Assembly (NCBI GenBank): GCA_964577555.1
Contig: CAZNZM010000003.1
Location: 5,837 to 37,836 of the forward strand
Reading direction: 5' to 3'
DNA: 32,000 nucleotides
From: an uncultured archaeon
GTDB lineage: Archaea > Iainarchaeota > Iainarchaeia > Iainarchaeales > Iainarchaeaceae
Below, piece by piece: positions 2,304-31,318 of the stretch. Positions within the stretch are counted from its first letter, which is position 1, and the number at the start of each line of letters is the position of its first letter. The position numbers and the translations under genes are program-made. Under the pieces are notes generated by a model that was not told the DNA's origin, searched no databases, and saw only the letters and a program-made list of their open reading frames with translations.

Positions 2304-4673
2304 TTACTCTCTGAATGCGCTTGCTGTTATTCCTGAGTCCCATGAGAGTCTTGGCCTCATTTTTACAAGCCAGATTTTTTCGGTTTCGTCGTCAAGTATT
2401 AGTGCGAAACCTTTTCCGCGTGGCATTTCTTGGTAGTATTTGTCAAAATTTTGATACAAATAGGATGGTCTTAGTTGTGAAACTGCTTCTATGTCTGGTT
2501 GTGCTGTCATTCTGTGTGATATGAAAATGTCGCATTGGCTTATGCAGTCAGGGTGTAGTTTGTTCGGCCTTTGCGTTGCCAATACTAGTGAAAGCCCTGG
2601 TTGTCTTCCGACTCTTACCCATTCAAGTAATGAGGAAAGGGCTATGCTGTCTTCGTCTTTTGGCATGAACATGTGTGCTTCGTCAATTAACATCCAGATT
2701 ATTGGAAGGTCGCTTTCCCGAGAAAATCCTTTGATGACTCTTATTTCTTCTTCTTTTCTGTATAGCATTCTTTCTTCAAAAAGTCTTTTTCCTATAATGC
2801 CTACTATTATGTCTCTTGTTCCTTCCATTCCTGCGGCTTGTCTGTATGATGAAACGTCTATTATTGTGATTGTGTTTGGCCTTGCTAAGTCTTTGATTTT
2901 TGAACCTTCTTTTTCAAATAAACCCCATGTTTTTGCTGTTGCAAATCTTCCTGCAACTGCATCCTTGACGTTTTTTTCCGATTCAGTATCGTTTTTTGCC
3001 GATTCTATCAGGTCATCCAAGCCATAAAAGGTGCCGAGTTTTGCTTTGGCGTTTTCAATTACTCTGGCAATTAGTGATCCTTCCGGTTCTTTCCATGAAA
3101 CTTTGAATAGGCTCATCCATTCGTGTGAATCAAGTTCTGATGTTCTTATTGTGAATGCTCCGTCTATTGGTAGATCTTTTCTTTTGTAAAATTCGAATTG
3201 TCCTTTTGGTACCATTACTTTTATTTCTATTGGCTCTGGTTTTAGTTCCCATTTTTCTAATTCCGACGTGTTGTTTTTTGTTGGTATTTTCATGCTCCAA
3301 AAAATTCCGACAGTGTCAATCACTATTACACTCATTCTTGACCTTATTTCTATTGGTTGTCTTGCAAATTCTTCTATGAGTATTCCAAGTGAGTAAGAAT
3401 TGTGCACTATAATATCATTTGCTATAAAGTTGTGCGTATTTGGGACGCTTATATCATATACTTCAAATTTTCCAGTTATTTCTTTTATTGAAGTGATTGT
3501 GTCCCAATAAATATGGTTTTCTGTTTGTGTTGTTTCGTTTTTGGTGTCTTCGTTTGTTTTGATTATTTGTAGCATTTTTTGTCTTGAATTTTTTTCGTTT
3601 GTTTCAATTGTAATCTGGTTTTCAATTTGTTGTGTTTTGATTTCGCTTTTTAATTCGCATAGTTTTATTTCTTCTTCAAATTTTTGAATGAAATCTTTTT
3701 TTATTTCTATTTCATATTTGGCGTCTTTTTTTTTGTTTGTCAGTTTGGAAACTATTCCGAATCTTAGCAAAAGATGTTGTATTTGTTTGGCCAATTTTTC
3801 CGATGCAAAATAGTATTTCATTGGTTCTTGTTGGTTGTTGCATTTGAAAAGGGTGTTTAGAAATAGTGCTAATTTTTCTTTTGGCAATTTGAAAATTTTT
3901 TCAGGAATTTGTTTGTCACTGGTATTTATGATTTTTGTGTTTATTAATAGTTCTTTGATTTTTTTAGTGTTTTTTATTGCAATATAATTAGGTTCTTTTT
4001 CTTGGATTATTTTGTTTTGGTTGTCGAGTTCTTTTATGCTTGTTTTCAAGTCTTGTTTTGTTTCTTCATTCAAGTTGTGGAATAGTATGTATTTTTTGTT
4101 GGTTGTGCCTGTTGCTATAAAATATGCTGTTAATTTTATTTCTTGGTCTTTCATGTTTTCGTTTCCGAAGATATCGAGTTTTTTTGCAGTGGCTATTTTG
4201 CTTCCAATTGAGAGTTCCTTTGCTGGTCTCCAGCCTTGTTCAGTTAGCAATGGGTGTTCTGGCGTGAGTTTTATTTTTTTGCCTGTTTCTAATTCGATTT
4301 CAAGCATTTTTTCTGTTTGTCTTTTGTAAAATTCGTCTTTGTATGCTTCTTTGATTTTGCATGAGTTGTTTAAAGACATTATTTTTCTTTTGTCTTTTTC
4401 CAAGTCTTTTATTTTAACAAGCGAGCCGTCTGATAAAGTTATTAATGTGTCTCCTTCAAGGCATTTGCCCCCGCCTCGCTTTCCGCAAATTAGCATCATG
4501 TGTGGTCTTGCTATGTCTATAAGTACTTTTCTGCCAAGCACTGGGTTTTCGCCTGAACTCATTACCACTTTGCCAACGTATGCTGTGCCTTTGGTGCCGT
4601 ATTTTTCTATGTCTTTTTGGTTTCTTCCAAGTATTGAAAAGTCGTTTCCTTGGTTGTTAGTTTCGTTTTCCAT
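2304..4673 (-). CDS. HerA/FtsK-superfamily (DUF87-like) P-loop ATPase interrupted by an intein
   Basis: Walker A GKRGGGK|S is split by the intein. Walker B is WMLIDEAH, and an ATQRP motif typical of HerA-type ATPases is present. The precursor is 789 aa; the spliced product would be about 434 aa. ATG at 4673. Confidence 0.75.
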   Translation of the reverse strand: MENETNNQGNDFSILGRNQKDIEKYGTKGTAYVGKVVMSSGENPVLGRKVLIDIARPHMMLICGKRGGGKCLEGDTLITLSDGSLVKIKDLEKDKRKIMSLNNSCKIKEAYKDEFYKRQTEKMLEIELETGKKIKLTPEHPLLTEQGWRPAKELSIGSKIATAKKLDIFGNENMKDQEIKLTAYFIATGTTNKKYILFHNLNEETKQDLKTSIKELDNQNKIIQEKEPNYIAIKNTKKIKELLINTKIINTSDKQIPEKIFKLPKEKLALFLNTLFKCNNQQEPMKYYFASEKLAKQIQHLLLRFGIVSKLTNKKKDAKYEIEIKKDFIQKFEEEIKLCELKSEIKTQQIENQITIETNEKNSRQKMLQIIKTNEDTKNETTQTENHIYWDTITSIKEITGKFEVYDISVPNTHNFIANDIIVHNSYSLGILIEEFARQPIEIRSRMSVIVIDTVGIFWSMKIPTKNNTSELEKWELKPEPIEIKVMVPKGQFEFYKRKDLPIDGAFTIRTSELDSHEWMSLFKVSWKEPEGSLIARVIENAKAKLGTFYGLDDLIESAKNDTESEKNVKDAVAGRFATAKTWGLFEKEGSKIKDLARPNTITIIDVSSYRQAAGMEGTRDIIVGIIGKRLFEERMLYRKEEEIRVIKGFSRESDLPIIWMLIDEAHMFMPKDEDSIALSSLLEWVRVGRQPGLSLVLATQRPNKLHPDCISQCDIFISHRMTAQPDIEAVSQLRPSYLYQNFDKYYQEMPRGKGFALILDDETEKIWLVKMRPRLSWDSGITASAFRE
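3399..4463 (-). mobile_element. Intein (355 aa) inside the Walker A motif, with a degenerate LAGLIDADG-like endonuclease domain
   Basis: Cys1 codon at 4461-4463 (CLEGDTLITL, block A). LTPEH (block B). VYDISV..HNFIANDIIVHN followed by +1 Ser (blocks F/G; Asn codon at 3399-3401). The central motifs LTAYFIATGT and LALFLNTLFKCNN align to LAGLIDADG positions but lack the acidic residues. Confidence 0.85.
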
Positions 4674-5680: not shown

Positions 5681-6274
5681 TTATTGTGTTTGTTTTTCTT
5701 CAATAATTTTTGCTGTGTATGTTTTTATTTTAATTTCATTTATTCCTTTTTTCCATTCTTCTTTGTCAAGTCCTGCTTTTTTGCATAGTTCTGAAATGAA
5801 TTCTTCTTTTTTTGGCAATTGTTTCCAGACTTGTGGCAGGAATGTGGCTTTTCTTGTCCCTTTTTGCAATATTATTCCCTTGTTGTTTTTTAGTTTTTTT
5901 AGCAGTTCTTCTGGTGATTTGAATTTGAGTTCTTTTGGCTTTGAAAGTATTGATATTTCTATTTTGATATTTTCTATTTCGTCTTCTGTTGTTATGGGGT
6001 GAAATCGTGGATCGTAGAATGTTGCAAGAACTGCGTTTTTTATTATTGTTTCATAAAGTTTATTTTCAGGTTCAATATTTCCAATGCATCCATGCAGTTC
6101 ATCATTAAGGTATATTGTAACAAAGCACCCTTTTGTTTTTTTAAGTTCTTGAAACGGTATTTCTTTTGGTTTTATTTGCATTATTTTTTTGTATTTCATG
6201 AAGTGCCTTATTGAGGTTCTTGCCAATTTTAATGAGAATTTTTCTAATTCATTTTTCTTGTTCATGTGTCTCAC
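5681..6274 (-). CDS. AMMECR1-family protein (AmmeMemoRadiSam system protein A)
   Basis: LHGCIG motif and overall AMMECR1 pattern. The GTG start at 6274 overlaps the upstream stop (GTGA); an alternative ATG is at 6265. Confidence 0.85.
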   Translation of the reverse strand: MRHMNKKNELEKFSLKLARTSIRHFMKYKKIMQIKPKEIPFQELKKTKGCFVTIYLNDELHGCIGNIEPENKLYETIIKNAVLATFYDPRFHPITTEDEIENIKIEISILSKPKELKFKSPEELLKKLKNNKGIILQKGTRKATFLPQVWKQLPKKEEFISELCKKAGLDKEEWKKGINEIKIKTYTAKIIEEKQTQ

Positions 6275-7059
6275 TCAAAGAATGCGTATGCTCCATAGCC
6301 TACTACTGAATTTTTGTTTCCTGCAGTGTCTCCGGAATTTTTGTAATCAAGTAATTTTCCTTTCCAATTTAGTTTTTTTGCGATGTGCATTAATGCAATT
6401 ATTCCTGTTAGTCCGCAGGCTTCTATTTGGGTTGTTGTTTCAATGTCAAGGCTTGGTATTGCTTTGTTTGCTATTGAATCAATTGCAATTGCTTCGTCAT
6501 AGGTGTAATAGTGGCTTAGGTCAGAGCTTGCTATTATTATTGTGTCTTCGTCAATTAATTCTTTGATTTGTTCAGCTAGTTTTTCCGGGTTTATTTTTCC
6601 ATAGACAATCGGGTTTATCGTGAATTTTTTTAGAGAGCATTGTAGGAATGGTATTTGTGTTTCTATTGAATGTTCTTTTGAATGGCTGTGTGGGTATTGC
6701 ATGAATCCTTTTTCGGATGTTTTGACTTTTCCAAGTGGTGTTTCCCAATATTGTGCTCCTGAGTTTGCCGCGCCGTTAAATGGTATGAAGTGTGAAGGCC
6801 CTATTATGATTGTTTTCCATTGTTTTTTTTGTTCTAGTTTTTTTATAAGTGAATATGCTTTTCCTGCCACTATGCCTGAATAAATGTATCCTGCGTGTGG
6901 GCTTATGATTGCTTTTAATTTTTCATTAGGTTTTGTTTTTGTTGTTTGTGTGAATTTTTCTATCATGTCTTTTAGTTCTTTTGGGTTTGCTGGATAAAAA
7001 ATTCCTGCAACTGCTGGTTTTCTTGTTTTATTTCCATATTCCTGGTATTTTTTCTCCAC
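6271..7059 (-). CDS. MEMO1-family protein (AmmeMemoRadiSam system protein B)
   Basis: RKPAVAGIFYP and ISPHAGYIYSG motifs. GTG start at 7059, with no in-frame ATG upstream of the conserved N-terminus. 32-nt overlap with the radical SAM gene. Confidence 0.85.
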   Translation of the reverse strand: MEKKYQEYGNKTRKPAVAGIFYPANPKELKDMIEKFTQTTKTKPNEKLKAIISPHAGYIYSGIVAGKAYSLIKKLEQKKQWKTIIIGPSHFIPFNGAANSGAQYWETPLGKVKTSEKGFMQYPHSHSKEHSIETQIPFLQCSLKKFTINPIVYGKINPEKLAEQIKELIDEDTIIIASSDLSHYYTYDEAIAIDSIANKAIPSLDIETTTQIEACGLTGIIALMHIAKKLNWKGKLLDYKNSGDTAGNKNSVVGYGAYAFFE

Positions 7060-8077
7060 ATTCGCACCTTCCTTTATTAAGTGAAATTATTTTAGTGTTG
7101 TATCCGTTTCTTTGTATGAGTGTTTTGTTGCATTTTGGACAGAAAGTGTTTTCATGTATTGTTGAAACATTGCCAACATAGACATATTCTAATCCTGCTT
7201 TTTTGCCTATTTTATATGCTTTTTCAAGGGTTTGTATTGGGGTTATTTCTTTGTCAAGCATTTTATAATCCGGATGGAATCTTGTTATGTGCCATGGCAT
7301 TTTTTTATCCACTTGTGCTATGAATCCTGCTATTTGTGCGAGTTCTTTTTCTGAGTCGTTTTCGTTTGGAATTATCAGTGTTGTGATTTCTACCCAGATC
7401 CCAAGTTTTTTTGCCAGTTTTATAGTTTCTAGTACTGGCTCAAGTTTTGCTCTGCATGTTTTCATATAAAATTGCTCTGTAAATGCTTTGAGGTCAATGT
7501 TCATTGCGTCAAGGAATGGTTTTATTTTGTTCAAGCTTTCTTTTGATTCATAGCCGTTTGAGACAAAGACGTTTTTTATTCCTTTTTTGTGTGCAAGTTT
7601 TGCTGTGTCGTAAGCGTATTCGAAAAATATTGCTGGTTCGTTGTAGGTGTAGGCTATGCTTGGTATTTTGTTTTCGATGCAATATTCTACTATTTGTTCT
7701 GGTTCTAATGTTTGGCCGTATTCAGCCAATTCGCCTATTTTTATGGTTTGTTCTTTTTGTTCTTTGAATTTTATTTTTATTTCTCTTGTTGCTTGTGATA
7801 TGTCCCAGTTTTGGCAGAAAGTGCATCCGAAATTGCAGCCTATTGTTCCTATTGAAAATATTGTTGTGCTAGGTAGAAAGTGGAAAAGTGGTTTTTTTTC
7901 AATTGGGTCTATGTGGCATGCTGCTGCTTTGCCGTAAACTATTAGGTATAGCTCTCCTTTTTCGTTTTTTCTTACTCCGCATATTCCTGTTGCGCCTTCT
8001 TTGATTATGCAATAGTGTTTGCATGCAGTGCATTTTACTGCATCGCCTGTTTTTTGGAAGAGCATCGCTTTGTGCAT
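7028..8077 (-). CDS. AmmeMemoRadiSam system radical SAM enzyme
   Basis: CNFGCTFCQNW (CX3CX2C) cluster motif. N-terminal CTACKHYC...GICGVR cysteine motif. C-terminal CPKC...CECG motif. ATG at 8077. Confidence 0.85.
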   Translation of the reverse strand: MHKAMLFQKTGDAVKCTACKHYCIIKEGATGICGVRKNEKGELYLIVYGKAAACHIDPIEKKPLFHFLPSTTIFSIGTIGCNFGCTFCQNWDISQATREIKIKFKEQKEQTIKIGELAEYGQTLEPEQIVEYCIENKIPSIAYTYNEPAIFFEYAYDTAKLAHKKGIKNVFVSNGYESKESLNKIKPFLDAMNIDLKAFTEQFYMKTCRAKLEPVLETIKLAKKLGIWVEITTLIIPNENDSEKELAQIAGFIAQVDKKMPWHITRFHPDYKMLDKEITPIQTLEKAYKIGKKAGLEYVYVGNVSTIHENTFCPKCNKTLIQRNGYNTKIISLNKGRCECGEKIPGIWK

Positions 8078-8817
8078 GAAATATTTTGTTTTGAAAGTTG
8101 TTTTATTATTATTTTCATTGTAAAAAAAGCTTTTTTTTTATTGTTTTGTTTTTTTTGCGAATTGTTTTTTGGTATTTTTATTTTTTGTTTTTTTTGGCTT
8201 GTTTTTTTTATTTTTGTAATTAATTTTTTTTTGTTTTGATTAGTTTTTTTTATTTGTTTTTTTTGTCTTTTTTTCTTTTTTTTGTTTGGTTATGCAAGTC
8301 GTTTTTTTTGGTTTGTTTTTGCAAGCCATATTTTTTTTAGTCGAGTTTTTTTGTTTTTTTTTGTCTTGTTTTTTTACGAGCCGAATTTTTTTTGTCATTT
8401 TTTTTATAATTAATTTTGTTTTTGTCTTTGTTTTGTCTGGTTGTTTTTTTCAGATCGGTATTTTTGTTTTTTTTTGAAGTTTTTTTAGTTTTTTGTTTGT
8501 TTTTGGCGAGCCGTTTTTTTTGTCGTTTTTTTTGTTTGAAATTTTGTTTTTTTGGAGCCAATAAATTGTTTTGTTCGTTTTTTCATTTTTTTTAATTTTG
8601 ATTTTTTTTGTTCTGTTTGTTTTTGGCGAGCCACTTTTTTTGTCATTTTTCTTTTTTTGTTTTTTTTTAAAATTAAATTATTTTTGTTGTATTTGTCTTG
8701 TTTTTTTGGCCTGTTTTTCAGGCAACTGTTTTTTTTTAATTTGCTTTATTTTTTTTTTGGTTTTGGCTAGTCGAGTTTTTGTTAGTTTTTTTGAATTATT
8801 TTTTTTTTAAATTTTTT
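8078..8817 (+). repeat. 740-bp T-tract intergenic array with RAGCC-T(n) units
   Basis: Units at about 8293, 8321, 8377, 8505, 8553, 8625 and 8765 (for example ttttggcgagccgttttttttgtcg at 8501). Lies between two - strand genes but is T-rich on the + strand. All ORFs here are poly-Phe (+) or poly-Lys (-) artefacts. Confidence 0.75.
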
Positions 8818-11067: not shown

Positions 11068-11211
11068 TTTTTCTTTTTTTGTCTTGTTTTTTTTGTTTTT
11101 TTTTGGCGAGCCGTTTTTTTTGTCGATTTTTTTGTTTTTTTTTTAATTTTTGTTATTTTTTTTGATTTTTGGTTTTTTTTGTTTGAAATTTTGTTTTTTT
11201 GTCTATTTTTT
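11068..11211 (+). repeat. T-tract spacer carrying the conserved ggcgagccg...gtttgaaattttg repeat block
   Basis: ttttggcgagccgttttttttgtcg at 11101 and ttttttttgtttgaaattttgtttttttg at ~11171 match the 8501-8552 block, with an extra insert between them. Lies between convergent genes. Confidence 0.7.
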
Positions 11212-14079
11212 TTAATTGAGTTGTAATGACATATAAAATTCTTTTTCTATGAATTTTTCCATTTTTTTATCGTTGGGTTGTACGTGTTTTATTTTTGTTC
11301 CGGTATTTTTTTCTATTTCGTTTTTGTATTTTTCAATAAAGTTTTTGTCTGAACAACTTATTTCCAATGTGACTATTTGGTCTGGGTTGAGTTTTGCGGT
11401 TTTTCTCATTTCTTGTATTCTTCTTCTAAGTTCCATGAGTTCCCATTCTTCTTTTAATTGCGTATCTGTTTCTATGTCTAGTAATATTTGTCCTTTTTGG
11501 GTTTCTTTTTGTGCGAATTTGCCTTTTGGACTTGTTTTTGTTTCTATAAATTCTTTGACGTTTGTTGAGTCTGCAATTATTTGTTTTGTGTTTGGGAATT
11601 CGTTGCCTGTTTTTGATATAAAAATCATTTTTTTGAGTGGCCATCTTAATCTCAATTTTTGTTCTTCTCTCAAGCTTAGGCATGCTTCAATTATTTCTTT
11701 TGCGTTTTCAACTTCTTTTTCAAGTTTTGTGTCTATCATTTTTTCATTTGGTTTTGGCATTGTTTGAAGATGGATTGATTCTGGGCTGTCTTTTGTTTTG
11801 TATTGCAGGTAATAGAATTCAGCCATGTGTGGAACTATTGGAGCCATTAGTCTTGTCAATGCCCAGAGTATTTCGTTGAAAATGTTGCTTAACTCTGTTT
11901 TTTCTTCTTTTGCCCTGTCTCTTATTGTTTTTATGTATGTTCTGCTGAATTCTTCTATTACGAATTTTTCTATGAGTTCTGTTACTTTGGCGTAATCGTA
12001 TTTGTTGTATTGTTTTATGACTTCTTTTTCAAGCGTGTTTAGTTTGCTTATTATCCATTTGTCTTCTGTTTTCATTTTTTTTGTGTTGAGTTCTTTGTTG
12101 TTTGGGAAACTCAATTCGAGGTATGTTGATGCGTAGTTGTAGCTGTTGTATAATGTGTTAAAGAATTTTGCAATGTCTTTGAATGCTTCCCAATCAAAAA
12201 GCATGTCTTCTCCTTTGAATTCTTTTGCCATGTAGTATCTGAGCATGTCTCGTTTGTGTTTTTGTATTATTTCTTGTGGCGAGACTATGTTTCCTTGGCT
12301 TTTTGACATTTTGTTTTTTTTAATATCAAGCACCATTCCGTGCATTGCTATTGTTTTGAATGGTTTTTCGTCAAAGCATATTGTGCTTGTGATGAGTTGT
12401 GAATTCCACCAGCCTCTTATTTGGTCTTTTCCTTCAACGTTGAATGCGGCTGGCCAGTATTTGTTGAACAATTCTTTTTTTGCAGGGTATCCTATGCTTC
12501 CCCATGAGCTTACTCCTGAATCAAACCAAACATCCAACACTTCTGGGATTCTTTTCATTGTTCCTTTGTTGCATTTTTCGCATTTCCATTTTACTTCGTC
12601 AATCCATGGTTTGTGAAGGTCTTTGATTTTGTCTTTGTAGTGTTCTTTGAGTTCTTTTTCTGATTCGAATACTTTTTGGTTTTTGCATGTGTCGCATATC
12701 CATATTGGCAGTGGTGCCCCCCAATATCTTTGTCTTGAAACTGGCCAGTCTCCGAGATTTTCAAGCCAGTTTCTGAATCTGTCTTTGCCCCATTCTGGTT
12801 GCCATACTACTGTTTCGTTTAATTGTATCATTCTTTCTCTTATTTTGCTGACTTTGAAAAACCATTGTGGGGTTCCTATCATTAATAGGGGTGTTTTGCA
12901 TCGCCAGCAAACAGGATAATCGTGTGTGTAATTGTGTTTGAAGACCAGAGCATTCATTTCTTTTAAGTCTGCAATTATTTCTTCGTCTACTTCTCTTGCT
13001 TTTTTTCCTTGGTATTTTCCTGCTTCTTCAGTCATTTTTCCGTCCAGGTTTACCGTTGTTATGATTGGCAATCCTGCTTTTGTGCCTGCGTCATAGTCTT
13101 CTTTTCCGCACCCTGGTGCACAATGTACTAATCCTGTTCCGTCTTCTAGGTTGACGTATCTTTCTGTCAGTATAACTTTGTAAGCGTTTTTTTGTTTTGG
13201 TAGTTTGAGATTTTTTTCTAAGGGGTTTTCGTATTCAATGCCTTCAATGTCTTTTCCTTTGAATTCTTTGATTATTATGAAACCTGCTTCTATTGCTTGC
13301 ATTAGTTGTTCCAACCTTTCTTTTGCAACAATCCATATTTCGTTACCTACTTGTGCTTCAACATAGTCAAAATTCGGGTGCACCATTACTCCTGTGTTGC
13401 TTGGCAGTGTCCATGGCGTGGTAGTCCATATTACAAGAAATTTGTTTGTTTCTTTTTTGATTTTGAACTTTACGTAGATTGATTTGTCTGTTTGTTTGGT
13501 GTATTCTATTTCGTTGTAGGCTACAGCTGTTTCACAATGAGGGCATACGTGCACTGGGTATTTTCCCAGGTAAAGGAGTCCTTTTTCATCCGCTTTTTTG
13601 AATGTCCACCATATTGCTTCAATGTATTCTTTGTTGAGTGTCAAATATGGGTTTTTCCAATCCATCCATACTCCGAGGTTTTCAAATTCGGCATTCATTA
13701 TGTCAATGTATTCTGTCGCGAATTTTCTGCATTCTTCGACGAATTTGTCGACGCCGTAACTTTCAATTTCAGATTTTGTTTTGAAGCCGAGTTTTTTTTC
13801 TACCTTGTTTTCTATTGGCAAGCCATGCGTGTCATATCCTGGTTGGTCCAATACTGAATATCCTTGCATTCTTTTTTGCCTGATTGTAATGTCTTTTATT
13901 ATTTTGTTAAGAGCAGTGCCAAGGTGTATGTTGCCTGATGCGTATGGCGGGCCATCCATCATGAAAAACCCTTCGCCTTTAGGGTTGAGTTTGTGTGCTT
14001 TTTCTGGTATTTTTTCTTTTATCCAGTATTTTCTGATTTCTTCCTCTTGGTTTAGGTCGTAATTTTTTGTGGTTGGCAT
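11212..14079 (-). CDS. ileS: Isoleucyl-tRNA synthetase
   Basis: HIGH-type motif PPYASGNIHLGT, KMSKS motif, CP1 editing region and zinc-type CPHC/CWRC motifs. 955 aa. ATG at 14079. Confidence 0.93.
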   Translation of the reverse strand: MPTTKNYDLNQEEEIRKYWIKEKIPEKAHKLNPKGEGFFMMDGPPYASGNIHLGTALNKIIKDITIRQKRMQGYSVLDQPGYDTHGLPIENKVEKKLGFKTKSEIESYGVDKFVEECRKFATEYIDIMNAEFENLGVWMDWKNPYLTLNKEYIEAIWWTFKKADEKGLLYLGKYPVHVCPHCETAVAYNEIEYTKQTDKSIYVKFKIKKETNKFLVIWTTTPWTLPSNTGVMVHPNFDYVEAQVGNEIWIVAKERLEQLMQAIEAGFIIIKEFKGKDIEGIEYENPLEKNLKLPKQKNAYKVILTERYVNLEDGTGLVHCAPGCGKEDYDAGTKAGLPIITTVNLDGKMTEEAGKYQGKKAREVDEEIIADLKEMNALVFKHNYTHDYPVCWRCKTPLLMIGTPQWFFKVSKIRERMIQLNETVVWQPEWGKDRFRNWLENLGDWPVSRQRYWGAPLPIWICDTCKNQKVFESEKELKEHYKDKIKDLHKPWIDEVKWKCEKCNKGTMKRIPEVLDVWFDSGVSSWGSIGYPAKKELFNKYWPAAFNVEGKDQIRGWWNSQLITSTICFDEKPFKTIAMHGMVLDIKKNKMSKSQGNIVSPQEIIQKHKRDMLRYYMAKEFKGEDMLFDWEAFKDIAKFFNTLYNSYNYASTYLELSFPNNKELNTKKMKTEDKWIISKLNTLEKEVIKQYNKYDYAKVTELIEKFVIEEFSRTYIKTIRDRAKEEKTELSNIFNEILWALTRLMAPIVPHMAEFYYLQYKTKDSPESIHLQTMPKPNEKMIDTKLEKEVENAKEIIEACLSLREEQKLRLRWPLKKMIFISKTGNEFPNTKQIIADSTNVKEFIETKTSPKGKFAQKETQKGQILLDIETDTQLKEEWELMELRRRIQEMRKTAKLNPDQIVTLEISCSDKNFIEKYKNEIEKNTGTKIKHVQPNDKKMEKFIEKEFYMSLQLN

Positions 14080-14103: not shown

Positions 14104-14177
14104 TGGGAGTAGGAGGATTTGAACCTCCGACGCTTGGTGTATAAGACCAATGCTCTACCAGGCTGAGCTATACTCCC
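14104..14177 (-). tRNA. tRNA-Ile (anticodon UAU), no encoded CCA
   Basis: Reverse complement: GGGAGTA-TA-GCTC-AGCCTGGTA-GAGC-A-TTGGT-CTTATAC-ACCAA-GCGTC-GGAGG-TTCAAAT-CCTCC-TACTCCC-A. All stems are Watson-Crick and the anticodon loop is CTTATAC. Lies 24 nt upstream of the ileS ATG on the same strand. Confidence 0.85.
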
Positions 14178-15229: not shown

Positions 15230-15836
15230 CATTTTTTTTGAAAATTAAAATTTGTCTTTTTTTTTGTTTAATTTATTTTTTTTGCCAGAGCCAAATATTA
15301 TTTTTTTATTTTGTTTTTTTTGGCGAGCCGTTTTATTTTTTTCGTTTTTTTTGTTTGAAGTTTTGTTTTTTTGCAAGCCATTTTTTTGCCATTTTTTTGA
15401 ATTCTTTTTTTGTCAAGCTGTTTTTTTGGCGTATTTTTTTTGGCAAACCACTTTTTTTGTCATTTTTTTTTGAATTTTTTTTGTGAGTCGTTTTTTTTTT
15501 TTTTGTAATTATTTTTTATTTAAAATAATTTTTTTTGTCATTGGCTTGGTTTTTTTTGAATTATTTTTCCAATTTTTGTTTTTTTTTGTTTTAGCTGCTT
15601 TTTGTTTTTTTGTTATTTTTTTGGCGAGCTGGATTTTTTTTGTTTTTTTGTTTGTTTTTGTGGGGCATTTTTTTCATTTTTTTGTTGGGTTGTTTTTTTG
15701 TAAGTCAATTTGTTTTTTTTTGTTTTGAATTTAATTAGTTATTTTTTTGCTAGCCAAGTTTTTTGTCATTTTTTGTTGTTTTTTTGGTTTTGTTTATTTG
15801 TTTTGGCTGGCGTTTTTTTTCGCCAGCCTTTTATTT
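15230..15836 (+). repeat. ~600-bp T-tract intergenic array with RAGCC-T(n) units
   Basis: Units at about 15284, 15322, 15373, 15413, 15442, 15483, 15623, 15700 and 15750, plus the hairpin at 15805. 15318-15372 matches the 8501/11101 block, and 15424-15470 matches 236-297. Lies between two - strand genes. Confidence 0.75.
15805..15828. terminator. Perfect hairpin ggctggcg-T8-cgccagcc immediately downstream of the thermosome stop
   Basis: 8-bp GC-rich stem with a T8 loop, 9 nt from the thermosome stop codon (15837-15839), followed on the + strand by ttttattttt. Its left half resembles the dispersed ggcgagccgtttttttt unit. Confidence 0.5.
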
Positions 15837-23530: not shown

Positions 23531-24634
23531 ATGATTTTTAAAAAATCATTTGTAATTGCCTCGTCTTTGATTTTTATATTGATGAGTGCAATAGCATTTT
23601 CAGAATCTGATAATACTACATCTGATAATACTACTAATACAGATGGCAGTAATACTGGTAGTGAACCGAATAAAGTTGTCACCAAGGTTCCAAATGTTGT
23701 AAAACCAAAACCGGTGGCTAATGTTGTTAGGCCTGTTCCTGATAGGAATTTTGTTAGGCCTGATGTTGTTAGGCCTGTTCCTGATAGGGATTTGAACCCA
23801 GTAGTTACACCATTTGTTAAAGCCAAGATTTTCGATAAGATAAAATCGGAATTGGATTCAAATTATTCAAATTTTTTGGCTGTAAAGGAAAAACTTAAAA
23901 TAGCAAAAGATAAAATCGAAAAGGAGAAAGTTAGAAAAGAATTGCAAGAAAAAACAAGGCTTTTGCTGATTGCTCAACTAAAAGCAATAATAGAAAAGCT
24001 AAAATTGGTTGAAAGCAATGGTGTTGCAGACGAGGAAACTAAAAGAGCTATTGAAGTTCTTGAAAAAAAATTGAATAATCTGCAAAATAGCAATGATTTG
24101 AATGTTTCAGATCTTCAATCAGTTTCCAGTGAGTCAAAGAAAATTTTTGAACGCAATGAAGCAAGAGTAAAGGCAAAAATCGGTCTTGAAATGGCTGAAA
24201 AATATCTTAAAACAATAGCCAAAGCCGAAGCCTATTCAAAAAGGCTTGGCGAAATAATTTCTTCCTTAAAAGCAGCTGGCAAAGATACTTCAAGGCTTCA
24301 AACCGCAAAAGAAAAGCTTGATAAAGACATAGAAAGAATAAAGTCGGTTGCTTTGTCTTTGAAGGAAAAGTTTGCCGCCGCTAATACTAAAGAAGAAACT
24401 CTTGAAGTAATGAAAGAAGCACACAATAAATTAAGAATTATTCATAAAGAAATCCAAAAAGATATTATTCTCATAAGGCTTGCTTTCATAGGAGCAAAAG
24501 AAATTTCTGAAAAAGGAGAATTATCTGTAAATACAAGCGATGAAATTGAAGAAGTCGTTTCAGGCGAAGCAAGTGCTGTAACTGAATTAAATGTTCCTTC
24601 AGAAGAATTAACTGCAGGAGGTGAAGCACAATGA
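23531..24634 (+). CDS. Secreted/surface protein: signal peptide, T/N/D-rich linker, VVRPVPDR repeats, about 270-aa K/E-rich helical domain (cassette copy 2)
   Basis: A strong AGGAGGTG Shine-Dalgarno sequence lies 6 nt upstream of the ATG. Signal peptide MIFKKSFVIASSLIFILMSAIAFS. A 24-bp perfect coding repeat occurs at 23724-23747 and 23763-23786. The helical domain is homologous by eye to the 18857 product. Confidence 0.65.
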   Translation: MIFKKSFVIASSLIFILMSAIAFSESDNTTSDNTTNTDGSNTGSEPNKVVTKVPNVVKPKPVANVVRPVPDRNFVRPDVVRPVPDRDLNPVVTPFVKAKIFDKIKSELDSNYSNFLAVKEKLKIAKDKIEKEKVRKELQEKTRLLLIAQLKAIIEKLKLVESNGVADEETKRAIEVLEKKLNNLQNSNDLNVSDLQSVSSESKKIFERNEARVKAKIGLEMAEKYLKTIAKAEAYSKRLGEIISSLKAAGKDTSRLQTAKEKLDKDIERIKSVALSLKEKFAAANTKEETLEVMKEAHNKLRIIHKEIQKDIILIRLAFIGAKEISEKGELSVNTSDEIEEVVSGEASAVTELNVPSEELTAGGEAQ

Positions 24635-25830: not shown

Positions 25831-26133
25831 TTATGAATCTGATTTTATTGTGTTTATTTTGGGAATTGCAAAAAAAATCAAAAACCATGCCAAAATAACC
25901 GCCATTGACATTGCAATTCCAAGCATAAAGCTGTTTGTAATAATGCCTTCGGTTGTTTCTTCCAAAAAAGCTTCGCCTTCCAAAAATGCGGTTGCCTTGT
26001 CTGAAAAAATCATTATTGTCGAACCCCAAAACATTAATGCAAGATAATCTGTTTTATATTTTCTAAAATTCGGAAAAAGCAAGTAAATAAGACTTGTTGC
26101 AATTGAAAAAAACAACATTGTTATTAACCACAT
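25831..26133 (-). CDS. Small 3-TM membrane protein, paralog of the upstream gene
   Basis: 100 aa. Same architecture as the 26147 product, with by-eye similarity (TM - FWGST/IFGGS - acidic loop - TM). 13-nt gap to the upstream gene. Confidence 0.5.
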   Translation of the reverse strand: MWLITMLFFSIATSLIYLLFPNFRKYKTDYLALMFWGSTIMIFSDKATAFLEGEAFLEETTEGIITNSFMLGIAMSMAVILAWFLIFFAIPKINTIKSDS

Positions 26134-26146
26134 TTTCTCACTTTTG

Positions 26147-26491
26147 TTATGTGTTGTGGCTTGTTTTGGTTGTCTGAGGCACTAATATTTTTTCATAAAC
26201 CAAAACCATTGTAATCCATGTTAATATTATTAAAAACGCCATTGGAACCCCGATTTTTATCATTTCGTTTAGCATTATGCTTGTTGTTTCTGGCGATTCC
26301 ATTGCTGTCAAAAAAGGAAACCAAGGAACGATTTCCTGATGTGCATAATGTTCTACTGCCAGAGCCACTGAGCCGCCAAAAATCATTGTGTTAAGCCAAT
26401 TTATGCGCCAATTTGTAGGAAATTTTTTTCTTAATGCTGTTGTGATTATGCCTATTGTCAGGGGAACCAAAAAACAAGCCATGAAAAACAA
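26147..26491 (-). CDS. Small 3-TM membrane protein
   Basis: 114 aa from TTG 26491; the ATG at 26482 gives MACFLVPLTIG. Tandem paralog of the 25831 product. Confidence 0.5.
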   Translation of the reverse strand: MFFMACFLVPLTIGIITTALRKKFPTNWRINWLNTMIFGGSVALAVEHYAHQEIVPWFPFLTAMESPETTSIMLNEMIKIGVPMAFLIILTWITMVLVYEKILVPQTTKTSHNT

Positions 26492-26555
26492 TTCTTTGAT
26501 TTGAATTTAAATGTATTCTTTTCTGAAATAATGCAAAAAATTGCAAATTCGGTTT

Positions 26556-26705
26556 TTAGTTTGGCTTTTTTGCGAATTTTGTTATCTCCAAATTGCACGA
26601 TTTGTTTTTTTTGCACCAAGCTTCGCATTTTTCAGCCCATTGCCTTTCCTTATAATACAAGTTGCATTCTTCGCATTGAAAGAACTCAAAATATTTTTTT
26701 ACCAT
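26556..26705 (-). CDS. Small (49 aa) Cys-rich protein (CxxC ... C...C......C)
   Basis: Not in the ORF track. Hand translation: MVKKYFEFFQCEECNLYYKERQWAEKCEAWCKKNKSCNLEITKFAKKPN. ATG at 26705, TAA at 26556-26558. First gene of a - strand cluster with the two membrane paralogs. Confidence 0.5.
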   Translation of the reverse strand: MVKKYFEFFQCEECNLYYKERQWAEKCEAWCKKNKSCNLEITKFAKKPN

Positions 26706-26873
26706 AAAATACTAACCAAGTATTCAAATTAAATTTTTATTTGTTTTAACTATCGGCTTGTTGTTTTTATTGCTGGTTGATTAAATCAAAAAAAATCTCT
26801 TTTTTTGCTTTAGCTAATTTCAAGCAATTTTTTTTGATTCATTGCATTTGCTTTAAAATCATTGCATGTAAAG

Positions 26874-26958
26874 AAATTATGTGCGGCGTTGATGAACTGA
26901 CGATGACTCTGACCTTGTGGTATGAAGATAGATGGGCGAACTGAGCCGCACATAATTT
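26874..26958 (+). ncRNA. Candidate C/D-box sRNA enclosed by a 14-bp perfect terminal stem
   Basis: Stem aaattatgtgcggc (26874-26887) pairs with gccgcacataattt (26945-26958). C box tgatga at 26890-26895, then a 13-nt spacer. D' ctga at 26909-26912. C' tgaaga at 26923-26928, then a 12-nt spacer. D ctga at 26941-26944. The boxes read correctly only on the + strand. Confidence 0.5.
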
Positions 26959-26963
26959 TTATT

Positions 26964-27026
26964 ATGAAATCATTATTTGGGTTTTTAGTTTTTTTATTTT
27001 TTAGAATTAATGGTTTTTGGCAATGT
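26964..27026 (+). pseudogene. Detached 5' fragment (native ATG and signal-peptide N-region) of the pLGIC-like gene
   Basis: ATG at 26964 encodes MKSLFGFLVFLFFRINGFWQC. The last 6-7 codons lie in direct-repeat copy A, in the same phase as copy B in front of the channel ORF. Confidence 0.55.
27007..27026 (+). repeat. Direct repeat copy A (ttaatggtttttggcaatgt)
   Basis: Perfect 20-mer identical to 28440-28459. The similarity extends 2 more nt with a 1-nt T-run length difference. Confidence 0.9.
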
Positions 27027-27082
27027 GAGTTTGTGGTTGTTTGCCATTTTTTTTGTTTTTATTTTGAATGTTTCCATGCGAT

Positions 27083-27859
27083 TCACTTTTTGGCGGGTTT
27101 CTTTTTTTTGTATTTGAAGTGTTTTGCAATTGCCATTATTGCAGTTTTGTATTCAATCGGATTGTTGGCTAGGGCACCAATTTCGAATTCCCACTTGTCA
27201 TAAACTTTGTTGGCGTTTTTGAAAATCTGCTCAACAACAAATTTCTGGTTGATGTCTTTGAGTTTTTTCCTTACAAGCGGCAGGTCAATCGGGATTTTTT
27301 TCTGAATTATTGAATAGAGGTCAAAATAGTCCCTCGCTTTTTTTCTTTGAAAAAGCGTTCGAACCTTTTCCGCAATCAACTCTTTCTTGTTGAGTGTTGA
27401 AACTTCAAATTCTGGAATCTCATCATAAAAATGCGGAACCTTGTATTTTTGAGGCTTCAAATAAACACTAGCCTGCTTGTTCACGTCAACAACAATCTCC
27501 GGCCTCAAATCAGTTATTGTTTTGTAGGAAATTTTTAGCCTGAAAAAGTTTGGCGTCTGCTTGTCAAACTGTGTTCTGGTAAAAAATTCTTTGTGGCTTT
27601 CAATGATTTTAAGAATTGATTGTTTTGCTTTCTGTAAAGAGCCGATGCAAGTAAAGTCTAAGTCTTCGCTCAGCCTGTTGTGGTTGAGAAAAATCTTGTT
27701 CAACGCGGTCCCGCCTTTGAAACAAAGCGCTGGAACATCTCTGAGGAAATACAGTAATACAGTCAGGTAATAGTCTTTTTCCATGTAATAGAGGCCGAAT
27801 TTTTTGTCTGCCGCCAGGAAGCGCAGGCGGTTTTCGGTTATGGGCTTGATTTCAACCAT
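27083..27859 (-). CDS. abiEii: AbiEii/DUF1814 nucleotidyltransferase toxin (type IV TA)
   Basis: FKGGTALNKIF...RLSEDLDF nucleotidyltransferase motif and downstream KVRTL..R..ARDYFDLY motif, characteristic of AbiEii. 258 aa. Confidence 0.85.
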   Translation of the reverse strand: MVEIKPITENRLRFLAADKKFGLYYMEKDYYLTVLLYFLRDVPALCFKGGTALNKIFLNHNRLSEDLDFTCIGSLQKAKQSILKIIESHKEFFTRTQFDKQTPNFFRLKISYKTITDLRPEIVVDVNKQASVYLKPQKYKVPHFYDEIPEFEVSTLNKKELIAEKVRTLFQRKKARDYFDLYSIIQKKIPIDLPLVRKKLKDINQKFVVEQIFKNANKVYDKWEFEIGALANNPIEYKTAIMAIAKHFKYKKKKPAKK

Positions 27860-28338
27860 CCCATTACCTTTTCCTTAGAGGCTATTTTGAAAGAATGATT
27901 TTTGGTTTTTTGTTCGACAAATCCAACAAGATTTTTTGGTCTGATTCTCTTGAACACTATCTCTGTATCAAAGAGCTTGGTTTTGCCCTGTTTGTTGGTG
28001 CAAAAAACTTCTATTTTTCTGGGGATTTGGTCAACGAAACCCCAGTAATGCGCAGCGGCAAAACCGCCAATAAAATAATTCTTGCCATTAAAGATTTCGT
28101 CAATTACAATAAAGGGGTTTTCCGACCACTTGTTTTGATAGGCCCTTACTGGAACAAGGTAGTATTTTGATTTGTTGATCTTGATGACTCTTTTTTTAGC
28201 TTTGAGCCTGTTGATGTAAACCCGAAGTTCATTGGTGTTTTTAAAAAATTTCTTTATGTCCTCCCTTGAAAAAAAGTTTTTATCGTTGAGTTCGAGGAAC
28301 GAAACAACCTCAATTTCCTTGCTGGAAAGCCCCTTCAT
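27838..28338 (-). CDS. abiEi: AbiEi-family antitoxin / wHTH transcriptional autoregulator
   Basis: N-terminal wHTH region and YFIGGFAAAHYWGFVDQIPRKIEVF motif typical of AbiEi. 22-nt overlap with the toxin gene. Confidence 0.8.
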   Translation of the reverse strand: MKGLSSKEIEVVSFLELNDKNFFSREDIKKFFKNTNELRVYINRLKAKKRVIKINKSKYYLVPVRAYQNKWSENPFIVIDEIFNGKNYFIGGFAAAHYWGFVDQIPRKIEVFCTNKQGKTKLFDTEIVFKRIRPKNLVGFVEQKTKNHSFKIASKEKVMGWLKSSP

Positions 28339-28382
28339 ATTGTTACACCAAAATTAACATTTTATTAATTCTAATGTAACAA
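28339..28382 (-). promoter_or_regulatory. Candidate AbiEi operator: nested inverted repeats immediately upstream of abiEi
   Basis: ttgttaca (28340-28347) pairs with tgtaacaa (28375-28382). An inner pair is aattaa (28352-28357) and ttaatt (28365-28370). The repeats overlap AT-rich TATA-like sequence. Confidence 0.35.
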
Positions 28383-28439
28383 ACCAATTTAAATTTTTTG
28401 GTGTGAGAAAATCGAGTTATTTGTAAACAACAAGCACAA

Positions 28440-28459
28440 TTAATGGTTTTTGGCAATGT
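28440..28459 (+). repeat. Direct repeat copy B (ttaatggtttttggcaatgt)
   Basis: Identical to 27007-27026. Followed by a T9 run and then the TTG that opens the channel ORF. Confidence 0.9.
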
Positions 28460-28465
28460 TTTTTT

Positions 28466-29329
28466 TTGTTAGGTTTGATTGCTTTTGCTTCAGCTGAGCC
28501 GGCAAAAGTAAAGGTCGGGGTTTATGTTTTGAGTATTGGAAAATTTGAAGTGAGTACTGGTTCTTATACTGTGGATTTTTATTTGTCAATGAAATGTGAG
28601 AATGAATGCGATCCAAGCAATTTTGAATTTACAAATGGCAGGGCTGTTTCAGTGGATAAAATAATTGATTTGACTAATGAAAAATTTTATAGGATTCAAG
28701 CTGCTTTGGCTGAGAATATTGATTTGAAGCAATATCCTTTTGATGATCACTATTTGACAATCAGTTTGGAGGATAAAAAGAATACGATTGATGATTTGGT
28801 TTATGTGTTTGACGAACAGGCTTCTGGAGTTGATCCTTCTGTTGTGTTAGTTGGTTGGGATTTAACTGGTAATATTGGCGAGGTAACTACTCATTATTAT
28901 CCGCCGTATGATGAAACTTATTCTAGGTTTGTCTATAAAGTGCATATAAAGAGAATTTTTTTGGCGGCTGTGATGAAAACTTTTTTGCCTATTTTGTTTA
29001 TTGTTATTGTAGGTTTGCTTGCGTTGTTGATTCATGAGTCTGACAAGCTTTGGACAAGGATTGGAGTAAATACTTCTTCGCTTATAGCTTCAGTCATGTT
29101 TCATTTGAATGTAACTTCCAGCATTCCGCCTGTGGGTTATTTGACTTTTGCTGATAAGTTCATGATTGCTACTTATATTATTTTGATATTGAGTTTGTTG
29201 AGCACTATAATAATGATGAGGCATGCAAAACAAAAAGACGAGAAAATGCTTGAAAAAATTTATCATGTTTCTCTTTATGCAATACCTGTTTTTGCGCTAA
29301 TTTTATATGGTTTGGTAATTTTTTTGTAA
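28466..29329 (+). CDS. Pentameric ligand-gated ion channel (GLIC/ELIC-like, Cys-loop superfamily) homolog, 5' end displaced by the insertion
   Basis: Beta-rich N-terminal domain (VKVGVYVLSIGKFEVSTGSYTVDFYL, YPFDDHYLTISLE at the Cys-loop-equivalent FPFD position). Pre-M1 YSRFVYKVHIKR. Four TM helices, with the M2-M3 segment RIGVNTSSLIASVMFHLNVTSSIPPVGYLTFADKF. The only in-frame start is TTG 28466. Confidence 0.75.
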   Translation: MLGLIAFASAEPAKVKVGVYVLSIGKFEVSTGSYTVDFYLSMKCENECDPSNFEFTNGRAVSVDKIIDLTNEKFYRIQAALAENIDLKQYPFDDHYLTISLEDKKNTIDDLVYVFDEQASGVDPSVVLVGWDLTGNIGEVTTHYYPPYDETYSRFVYKVHIKRIFLAAVMKTFLPILFIVIVGLLALLIHESDKLWTRIGVNTSSLIASVMFHLNVTSSIPPVGYLTFADKFMIATYIILILSLLSTIIMMRHAKQKDEKMLEKIYHVSLYAIPVFALILYGLVIFL

Positions 29330-29331
29330 AA

Positions 29332-29359
29332 TTCAAATGCTTGATTGAAGTTTTTTTTT
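29332..29359 (+). terminator. Weak AT hairpin plus T9 after the channel gene
   Basis: ttcaa...ttgaa (29332-29349) followed by ttttttttt (29351-29359). Confidence 0.3.
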
Positions 29360-29403
29360 AACGTTTGGCATTTCGGAATCGATTTTTAATTTTATTTTTT
29401 TAT

Positions 29404-30195
29404 ATGTTTTTAGTTAAGATGTCTAAATCTAAGCGTGATTTAAGAAAGACTAAAATGCCTGGCAATTGGGTGCGTTTGGGTAGGCCTGAAAGAGAACGCA
29501 GACGATTTGCTTTTTCAAATGAAACTGCCTCTTTTCCTTCTGTAGAAATATTTGATAGACGGAGTCTTTGGAATGTTTTTGGCAGTAATATTAATGTAAT
29601 TGAACATGATTTAAATTTTAGAATTAGGGATCATATTAGGTCGTTGTTTAGTAATAATAGCAGAGTTGTTAATGTTCTTGATTTGGGTTGTGGCAAGGGT
29701 GTTGCGTTGAATGATTTGAAAAGGCTTTTTGGTGATAGGGTGAGGACTTTTGGACAGGTTGCAGCTGTTAGTCCTAGTGAAAAATATGAGGGTGTTGATA
29801 GGCTTTTGGTTGGTTCTTTGACTTTGCCTGACAAACCCCTTAGACTTGTCAGGGTTAATATGGGTATGAATGTTGAGTTGGATAAAAACATGGTTTTTAG
29901 GGCTAGGCCTATTATGGATTTGATTTATTCTTATTTTGGTACTTCTTATCATTCTTTTTTGAAATTAACTGTTTTAGAAGAGGTTATTAAGTGGCTTAGG
30001 CCTGGCGGAATTGCTGTTATCCAGTTTGACTGTTTTAGTCCTAACAGTCTTAAATTTAATGATGATGTTAGATTCAAGAATGAAATTGCTCTTTTATTGA
30101 GGCAATATAGAATTAATAATTTTGAATTTAAACGGACTGGTTCAGATTTATGGCCTACTGTTTTATTTTTTCAAAAACCGGTTGTTAAATTGTGA
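29404..30195 (+). CDS. Class I SAM-dependent methyltransferase
   Basis: Motif I VLDLGCGKGVAL and motif LRPGGIAVIQF. The start is uncertain: track TTG 29365, ATGs at 29404 and 29419. Confidence 0.65.
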   Translation: MFLVKMSKSKRDLRKTKMPGNWVRLGRPERERRRFAFSNETASFPSVEIFDRRSLWNVFGSNINVIEHDLNFRIRDHIRSLFSNNSRVVNVLDLGCGKGVALNDLKRLFGDRVRTFGQVAAVSPSEKYEGVDRLLVGSLTLPDKPLRLVRVNMGMNVELDKNMVFRARPIMDLIYSYFGTSYHSFLKLTVLEEVIKWLRPGGIAVIQFDCFSPNSLKFNDDVRFKNEIALLLRQYRINNFEFKRTGSDLWPTVLFFQKPVVKL

Positions 30196-31110: not shown

Positions 31111-31318
31111 TGATTTTTTTTTAATATAAATTTCATTTATTTTTTTTATTAAGATTTTGTTTTTAATTTTGGAATTGTTTTTTTTGTTATTTTTTTTGTA
31201 TTCTTTTTTTGTGAGCCATTTTTTTTATTTTCTTTTTTTTCGTTTTTTTTTTAATTTTAATACTTTGTTTTTTTTGTTTGTTTTGGTTTTTTAATACTTT
31301 CCTAAATTGTTTTTTTTT
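31111..31318 (+). repeat. T-tract spacer with an RAGCC-T(n) unit
   Basis: gtgagccatttttttt at ~31212. T-rich on the + strand. Confidence 0.55.

Follow-up and report, generated by a model that had tools for sequence, protein, structure and literature searches.

Here, we describe an AbiE toxin–antitoxin (TA) cassette that interrupts the 5' end of a channel gene in a small-genome archaeon. The site lies on contig CAZNZM010000003.1 (assembly GCA_964577555.1), within a stretch of 32,000 nucleotides that we refer to as "the window" and whose numbering we use unless another contig is named. A 1.41-kb fragment with an abiE operon sits in the signal-peptide region of a gene encoding a pentameric ligand-gated ion channel (pLGIC), 73 bp downstream of a C/D-box small RNA (sRNA)-like gene. 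The whole insert, i.e., the AbiE cassette with its ragged flanks, occupies 27027–28437 (minus strand; 1411 bp) and is bounded by repeats. It is probably the product of a single, recent, recombinase-independent (illegitimate) insertion of a horizontally acquired linear fragment, accompanied by a 21–22-bp target duplication. An earlier note, made from the sequence alone, had proposed the recent insertion of a minimal, recombinase-free AbiE module into the 5' end of a pLGIC-like gene. That proposal is supported by the empty site found in a relative, by the N-terminus of the reconstructed channel, and by the foreign GC content at third codon positions (GC3) of the cassette.

The 20-mer TTAATGGTTTTTGGCAATGT, described earlier as a direct repeat at 27007–27026 and 28440–28459, is present at both places, and the exact repeat in fact extends to 22 bp rather than 20. 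The 22-mer, AATTAATGGTTTTTGGCAATGT, occupies 27005–27026 (copy A) and 28438–28459 (copy B), so that its copies are 1433 bp apart. No exact direct repeat within 26000–29500 is longer; in 300 dinucleotide-preserving shuffles of the same region, the longest direct repeat averaged 13 bp and reached a maximum of 17. The first A of copy B, at 28438, may belong to the cassette, as its last base, or to the target, which corresponds to 1 nt of microhomology and a duplication of 21–22 bp. The repeat was also searched for as a possible dispersed repeat. No third match to the 20-mer was found in the whole 32-kb window (up to three mismatches, both strands), and two large metagenome/genome collections, which do not include the source contig, returned five chance hits with unrelated flanks. 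Neither the window nor the collections, therefore, show the 22-mer as a dispersed genomic repeat.

The two repeat copies are read in the same phase, each translating as INGFWQC. Deleting either copy together with the insert (1433 bp) gives the identical sequence, in which a single open reading frame (ORF) of 310 aa begins at ATG 26964; the continuous ORF foreseen in the earlier note is thus recovered. At present, this ORF lies in two pieces. The severed 5' piece (26964–27026, plus strand) holds the first 21 codons, from the native ATG on (MKSLFGFLVFLFFRINGFWQC), and lies in the only frame that is open there. It runs on as an 80-codon hydrophobic ORF (26964–27203, plus strand), antisense to the 3' end of abiEii, that we regard as junk. 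The channel body (28466–29329, plus strand) encodes 287 aa from a TTG. Its frame is open from 28427, following an in-frame TAA at 28424–28426, and TTG 28466 is its first start codon. The lone TTG start and the stub of a signal peptide were correctly described before: 10 residues precede an ASA/EP cleavage-type site, and the G[VI]Y motif discussed below starts at residue 17.

Members of the pLGIC family such as GLIC and ELIC combine an extracellular beta-sandwich domain with four transmembrane helices, and the channel of the window is homologous to GLIC. A phmmer search of the 287-aa ORF against the PDB matched GLIC at 5.7e-15 over residues 66–283; matches to Pfam PF02931 and PF02932 are weak and below their cut-offs. 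The ORF has 597 homologues at E ≤ 0.001, and the best 120 of the 597 are mostly 295–308 aa long. Nearly all of the N-termini that we inspected (24 full sequences and others) consist of a normal signal peptide followed by ...V.VG[VI]YVL. Across 95 homologues, the G[VI]Y motif starts 26–44 residues in (5th–95th percentile; median 29), as compared with residue 17 in the present ORF and residue 40 in the reconstruction. Judged by this motif, the present ORF is beheaded, and the reconstruction falls inside the normal range, on its long side. The reconstructed signal peptide would span 33 aa, with an Arg mid-way. Unlike GLIC and ELIC, the copy in the window has been separated from its start codon and from the greater part of its signal peptide. 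Having lost its native ATG, its upstream region and two-thirds of its signal peptide, the channel is probably non-functional or poorly exported.

The region upstream of the channel provides a landmark for comparison with relatives. The C/D-box sRNA-like gene (26874–26958, plus strand) has a perfect 14-bp terminal stem (26874–26887/26945–26958) and all four boxes, i.e., C (TGATGA, 26890–26895), D', C' and D (CTGA, 26941–26944). Its best Rfam match is sR2, with 24.6 bits (E = 0.0013); this score is below the gathering score of 42, so the gene belongs to no curated family. It is kept in contig L002 (3436–3520), which carries the closest relative of the channel, and in contig L012 (2206–2290, minus strand), which carries the nearest relative of the cassette. 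The conservation extends to both guide regions (12 nt each), and among the contigs one stem pair changes from C-G to A-T in a compensatory manner. The sRNA gene is a conserved landmark just upstream of the channel start and lies outside the insert.

The closest channel homologue (P0002; 82% identity) is encoded on L002, in an upstream context that is syntenic with the window: genes for membrane proteins of 100 aa and 111 aa, the sRNA-like gene, and the channel. By blastn, window 26001–26966 aligns with L002 2579–3526 at 81% identity, and window 28447–29333 aligns with L002 3547–4432 at 78% identity. L002 has no counterpart of 27027–28437. Its channel ATG directly follows the sRNA gene, at 21 nt, as compared with 12 nt for ATG 26964 in the window. 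Of the repeat, the right 13 nt (TTTTTGGCAATGT) match L002 just past its start codon, at 12 of 13 positions; therefore, the repeat is probably native 5' coding sequence of the channel lineage. The second member of the P0002 cluster, P0122, has an N-terminal extension (MTIDGRTEPHIFCFGVV-MKKFF) that corresponds to the translated sRNA running into the channel, and on this basis its contig reads as a second empty site. The check for an empty site that the earlier note had proposed thus succeeded in part: the syntenic relative and P0122 are empty, and the same-species alleles found are all filled. The two repeat copies are identical at 22 of 22 positions, while the flanks differ from L002 by ~20%; the insertion is, for this reason, much younger than the split from L002.

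These comparisons also bear on the idea that there was no insertion with duplication at all, either because the 22-mer was already duplicated in the target or because the cassette is ancestral and was lost in the relatives. The 5' region is T-rich, indel-prone and repetitive, and between shared anchors it is 29 nt longer than in L002 (62 nt from the sRNA gene to the 13-mer in the window, 33 nt in L002); moreover, the genome is full of T-tract/GGCA motifs. However, two 22-mers in succession would put the gene out of frame, 22 not being divisible by 3, whereas one copy gives the open 310-aa ORF, and the window has no further near-copy of the 22-mer at up to three mismatches. For an ancestral cassette, the difficulty is that the repeats are identical and the flanks ~20% off L002, so the event postdates the split; the foreign GC3 of the cassette is a second difficulty. 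We consider an origin without insertion and duplication highly improbable.

Both insertion junctions recur base for base in independent assemblies: contigs L001 and L009 (JGI 3300037501) and contig L010 (SRR12686701). A fourth contig, L011 (JGI 3300043267), covers the left junction only. Because identical junctions are found in independent assemblies, an assembly artefact is excluded. Across 13.5 kb, the window differs from L001 by two mismatches and one 42-bp indel; the window and the L001-type contigs represent strains of a single population, and all of the contigs found carry the insertion. The 42-bp indel is in-frame and falls in a gene for a repeat-rich secreted or coiled-coil protein (23531–24634, plus strand), which has 367 aa in the window and 381 aa in L001. 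The two sequences are otherwise 99.98% identical, and the indel represents strain-level repeat variation. With respect to the host, the thermosome, deoxyhypusine synthase and C/D sRNA genes in the window are archaeal markers. The sequence neighbours of the thermosome, at 80–87% identity, carry the name Candidatus Diapherotrites, as do the nearest named channel homologues. The host is a Candidatus Diapherotrites (DPANN) archaeon, and the small-genome archaeal setting assumed at the outset is right.

The cassette had been described as holding only the abiEi–abiEii pair, on the strand opposite to the channel, and ORF calls, Pfam and PADLOC all agree: two overlapping minus-strand genes are all that lies between the repeat copies. 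The predicted toxin gene, abiEii (27083–27859, minus strand), encodes a DUF1814 nucleotidyltransferase of 258 aa. It matches Pfam PF08843 with 111.6 bits (cut-off 22.5; E = 7.6e-32) and PADLOC AbiEii at 4e-41. AbiEii proteins are marked by motifs I (hG[GS]), II (DhD, after x15), III (K...R) and IV (D) (PMC3985639). The protein of the window has motif I (G49 G50), x15, motif II (D66-L-D68), K165...R172 and D177/D180, and these residues are invariant in 20 homologues. The putative antitoxin/repressor gene, abiEi (27838–28338, minus strand), overlaps abiEii by 22 nt and encodes a short-form protein of 166 aa, which is shorter than every matching profile. PADLOC detects AbiEi at 2.7e-23 over residues 4–157, covering only profile positions 2–146 of 252, and the Pfam AbiEi_1 score of 16.6 bits is below the cut-off of 22.2. 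An abiEi of 166 aa is also found in four related cassettes (contigs L013–L016), and the copy in L012 is intact. The layout of the operon, with the antitoxin gene first and a 22-nt overlap, is likewise the same in L013–L016.

AbiEii is a GTP-binding nucleotidyltransferase toxin, and AbiEi both neutralises AbiEii and represses the operon at inverted repeats (PMC3985639, PMC7319586). Upstream of abiEi in the window lies a putative promoter/operator region (28339–28401, minus strand) that is conserved in all cassette copies. It contains an 18-nt inverted repeat (TTGTTACA...TGTAACAA; 28340–28357/28365–28382), positioned between a TATA-like box (TTTAAAT, 28388–28394) and the abiEi ATG. The promoter and operator roles of this region are suggested by analogy with AbiEi autoregulation (PMC3985639, PMC7319586). 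From its sequence, the operon is complete and apparently intact, with its own promoter/operator, and by the same analogy, the pair would act as an abortive-infection/addiction module. The system shares several features with AbiE of Streptococcus agalactiae and Lactococcus (Dy et al. 2014, PMC3985639; Beck et al. 2020, PMC7319586), namely the overlapping bicistronic operon, nucleotidyltransferase motifs I–IV of DUF1814, and an inverted repeat between the promoter and abiEi. It differs in that its AbiEi is the 166-aa short form, corresponding to approximately the first 146 of the 252 positions of the best PADLOC profile, and in that its putative promoter is of the archaeal type.

A comparison of the composition of the insert with that of its flanks, as suggested earlier, gave higher GC and GC3 values than those of the host. 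GC3 is 0.475 for abiEii and 0.455 for abiEi; the 25 host genes of the window that were compared average 0.294 (sd 0.037) and reach at most 0.348. The overall GC content is 0.366 for the insert versus 0.331 for the rest of the window. Related cassettes were found in five other contigs (L012–L016), with 77–86% DNA identity to window 27064–28401. In the nearest relative, L012 (JGI Ga0394676_46369; 86% DNA identity, with AbiEii 90% identical), the cassette lies beside an HNH gene and a type I restriction island. In L013 (GCA_964373795.1), it lies ~350 bp from a TnpB/OrfB_IS605 gene (6020–7177), and in L014 it lies beside the SRP54-prefoldin-L18A-eIF6 cluster; L015 and L016 are two short contigs. 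L013 and L014 have in common a 1.57-kb unit of 92% identity, in contexts that are otherwise different. Because its GC3 is above the host range and its relatives occur in unrelated archaeal contexts, the cassette is taken to be foreign. We also considered a virus or a plasmid as the vehicle and set this aside, given that searches of IMG/VR contigs with a single AbiEii sequence and with a 20-sequence alignment found no relatives.

The shared cassette segments end at different, nested positions among the copies, and none of the five other copies has flanking direct repeats of at least 11 bp. On the left side of the insert, homology ends near 27063. In L014 and L015, a third small ORF (METFKGKVR..., 72–78 aa) starts 5 nt past the abiEii stop codon. 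Its remnant in the window consists of the first five codons (METFK; 27063–27077, minus strand, with the ATG at 27077), and its remnant in L013 consists of 15 codons. The left-end segment (27027–27063; 37 bp; GTTTGCCATTTTTTTTGTTTTT) has no homology in the L012–L016 cassettes. It has short exact matches to host T-run sites, with GCCATTTTTTT occurring seven times in the window, and it looks like the T-tract/GCCA intergenic motif of the genome itself. On the right side, the cassette segment at 28402–28437 is common to L012 up to ...AAACAACARGCACA: homology resumes beyond a 46-bp indel, continues through a terminal 15-mer that matches at 14 of 15 positions, and breaks off precisely at copy B's inner edge. 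Therefore, the 22-mer is not part of the cassette.

Two further patterns at the ends were considered and rejected. First, the left end of the insert might contain the target for a third time, in decayed form (27034–27073 versus 28444–28484; 31/41 matches, p ~0.017); this was judged too weak, because both stretches are T-rich and the segment resembles the T-tract/GCCA motif of the host. Second, the 11-mer GCTTGTTGTTT, with which the cassette ends on the right, has 4 occurrences in the window versus 0.16 expected (1610–1620, 26279–26289 and 26756–26766 on the plus strand; 28425–28435 on the minus strand). We do not take it as a meaningful end signal, since the contexts are otherwise unlike and the pattern was picked after the matches had been seen. 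As an observation in its own right, degenerate, roughly phased T-tract repeats form intergenic regions of this genome, with periods of 10–13 bp and longer and with GGCA/GCCA or GCAAGCC cores (for example, TTTTTTTGGCAAGCCAAT). In the window, such regions lie at 7–450, 2212–2306, 8135–8405, 11113–11211, 15263–15701 and 31155–31301, and 294 different 11-mers are present at least four times.

The part of the genome inspected for mobility machinery and for other copies comprises ~39 kb, i.e., the window and the 7 kb by which L001 extends beyond it. The cassette had been reported to carry no integrase or transposase; domain scans uphold this, and neither the window ORFs that were scanned nor the further 7 kb yielded such a domain. 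By contrast, the 10/11 imperfect terminal inverted repeat reported for the cassette does not stand. Only 9 of 10 positions pair (27032–27041 versus 28429–28438), and 36% of shuffles are as good, which is chance level. Folded ends of the attC or IS605 kind were likewise rejected, as folding of the ends shows no excess over shuffles (z from −0.97 to +0.04), and neither cassette end has a second copy in the ~39 kb.

These properties are relevant to whether the cassette is a non-autonomous transposable element, moved in trans by a transposase or a casposase-type integrase, with cuts staggered by ~19–22 bp and repair that duplicates the target. Some elements of the IS4/IS1634 group make long, variable target duplications, and casposons make duplications of 14–15 bp. 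An exact duplication of a unique target does flank the cassette, its ends can be parsed as 5'-TGTG...CACA-3' if three nucleotides of the repeat are assigned to the element, and the relative in L013 adjoins a TnpB/OrfB_IS605 gene. Against this, IS200/IS605 elements make no target duplication. Furthermore, there are no significant terminal inverted repeats and no terminal hairpins, the ends are not conserved among the six copies, whose breakpoints are nested, the other copies are without duplications, and neither end is repeated in the 39 kb. Movement as a transposon therefore seems to us quite unlikely.

The absence of an integrase from the scanned sequence has a similar bearing on a different route, in which a circular cassette with one 22-mer integrated either site-specifically, through an integrase acting in trans on a 22-bp attachment (att) core, or by Campbell-type re-integration, in which a circle released from a filled site would recombine through the 22 bp of homology and so carry the allele through the population. 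Exact direct repeats of ~20–50 bp are the classical mark of attL/attR, which is the reason for the >30-bp threshold used in surveys of comparable insertions (PMC2853133). The allele is identical in several samples, and Kobayashi and colleagues have proposed a cycle of release and re-insertion (PMC2853133) that would suit a circle. The junction expected in such a circle would read ...AACAAGCACA + 22-mer + GAGTTTGTGG. However, the 22-mer adjoins neither the L012 cassette nor any other copy, it has only chance hits in the genome/metagenome collections, and no integrase gene was found in the scanned cassette, the window or the further 7 kb. The target is no tRNA gene, and the gene was left unrepaired, with an in-frame TAA before copy B. 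In addition, re-integration accounts for spread within the population and not for the first event. We judge integration of a circle to be unlikely. The cassette resembles att-bounded archaeal elements (tyrosine-integrase elements, integrative plasmids and viruses) in its exact direct repeats of ~20 bp or more. It differs from them in having two genes and no integrase, in lying in a signal-peptide coding region rather than a tRNA gene, and in having a repeat that is unlinked to the other cassette copies.

Integron gene cassettes offer another comparison. Like the cassette of the window, they are promoter-proximal units of one or two genes without their own recombinase, and such cassettes, often with TA genes, have reportedly been described in Archaea too by Ghaly et al. 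in 2022. By contrast, the ends of the cassette in the window lack an attC-type fold, no IntI was found in the window, there is no attI, and integron insertion proceeds without a 22-bp duplication.

The closest parallel comes from restriction-modification (R-M) systems. R-M units that are unaccompanied by other mobile elements have been described in "insertion with long target duplication" (PMC2853133; Nobusato et al. 2000, Gene 259:99). Such insertions occur in several bacterial phyla, gene fusions have been seen, and double-strand breakage has been suggested as the cause (PMC2853133; PMC3874152). Furuta, Abe and Kobayashi (2010) required a duplication of >30 bp, because of att repeats, and no archaeal case passed their screen (PMC2853133). 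Their criteria were a complete module, a size of <20 kb, no mobility gene, a duplication of >30 bp, and a repeat that is single at the uninterrupted site of a relative and not dispersed in the genome (PMC2853133). The insert of the window comprises a complete module with its promoter in 1411 bp, with no mobility gene and a repeat that is not dispersed in the sequence searched, and its duplication of 21–22 bp falls short of >30 bp. [quoted passage not shown] There are also differences. The module is a type IV TA/Abi system without a DNA-cleaving enzyme of its own, the host is archaeal, the duplication is well short of the roughly 100 bp typical of R-M insertions, and the empty site comes from a relative of no more than ~80% identity.

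Under the illegitimate insertion that we favor, a linear fragment comprising the abiE operon with its promoter, plus a few dozen bases from earlier neighbours, would have been inserted by illegitimate recombination. Its ends would have been joined to the chromosome at points 21–22 bp from each other, with microhomology of no more than 1 nt, such that the intervening target ended up on both sides. There are three possible routes: (i) a staggered break that was filled in; (ii) joining to two copies of the genome; or (iii) a replicative template switch that restarted 21–22 nt back. Each would copy the target on both sides, and the three are indistinguishable from sequence. Transcription from the old channel start would run antisense into abiEii. 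If the old channel promoter were still active, it would yield RNA antisense to the toxin gene. Were the insertion to revert exactly, by recombination between the 22-bp repeats, the antitoxin gene would be lost, and post-segregational toxicity may for that reason hold the insertion in place; addiction may, in other words, keep the cassette where it is.

Several observations weigh against an illegitimate one-off insertion. With respect to the empty site, it comes from a relative of ~80% identity, where the match to the repeat is limited to its right 13 nt (12/13). Same-species empty alleles were not found: all three of the contigs with the exact neighbouring (upstream) protein are filled, and a look-up of P0121 in the course of this search returned no record. 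The 310-aa protein is absent from a search of 5.8 billion clusters and from the P0001 cluster, and the reconstructed signal peptide is 13 residues longer than that in L002, with an Arg in its middle. With respect to the mechanism, a duplication of 21–22 bp is below the >30-bp criterion and within the range of att cores of site-specific recombinases. Giving three repeat nucleotides to the element produces the 5'-TGTG...CACA-3' ends seen in many DDE transposons, and, with ~39 kb inspected, a trans-acting transposase, casposase or integrase may be encoded elsewhere in the genome. Lastly, two related cassettes lie beside the same sRNA, which a random one-off event does not predict.

The second of these cassettes is that of L012, where a homologue of the same sRNA (82% over 85 nt) lies upstream of the cassette with a gene for a 204-aa HNH endonuclease in between (region 1634–2290). 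The HNH gene product starts with MKQLF, and the channel of the window starts with MKSLF; beyond the cassette and the sRNA, nothing in L012 is syntenic with the window. The sRNA site in L012 could be the sign of a hot spot or of a homology anchor. We considered a homology-anchored transfer via the sRNA from an L012-like donor and rejected it as the simple explanation, given that what lies between the sRNA gene and the cassette in the window, copy A included, is the window's own sequence, and that L012 shares nothing else with the window. A bolder proposal is that AbiE cassettes of DPANN archaea are unrecognised, recombinase-less mobile defence units, which produce ~20-bp duplications through a host or trans-acting activity, prefer sites directly downstream of a conserved C/D-box sRNA gene and are protected against precise excision by their TA function. 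The position downstream of the sRNA, seen twice (in the window and in L012), speaks for this proposal, to which we give little credence.

Elsewhere in the window, three observations are worth recording. A tRNA-Ile gene with anticodon TAT (14104–14177, minus strand) lies directly beside the isoleucyl-tRNA synthetase gene (11212–14079). A UAU isoleucine tRNA is uncommon in archaea, where AUA is usually read by a modified CAU tRNA. An ORF of 789 aa (2304–4673, minus strand) contains an intein (splicing domain, residues 78–425) with a LAGLIDADG homing endonuclease. Downstream of the channel, a methyltransferase-like gene (29365–30195) includes a segment (29665–30028) that is paralogous, at 87% identity, to L001 17266–17629, ~7 kb further on in the same genome.

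The mobility of TA pairs by this mode had been called poorly described. This stands insofar as our literature search for TA cassettes with target duplications found nothing specific; the same mode has, however, been described for R-M systems (PMC2853133). The feature is a known kind of insertion, in a new type of module (a TA pair) and a new domain (Archaea). It is a single event, and we infer its mechanism from the arrangement of the sequence. At the level of annotation, a 287-aa "hypothetical protein" with a TTG start turns out to be a beheaded GLIC-like channel whose true start lies 1.5 kb upstream. At base-pair resolution, the insertion shows that the chromosome of a DPANN archaeon can be entered, and a gene in it split, by a defence/addiction module that has no mobile-element machinery itself, and it would extend a mode of gene mobility known from R-M systems to a TA pair and to Archaea. 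Because exact reversion would restore the channel and remove the antitoxin gene, the locus may also serve as a natural test of whether a harmful insertion can be stabilised by addiction.

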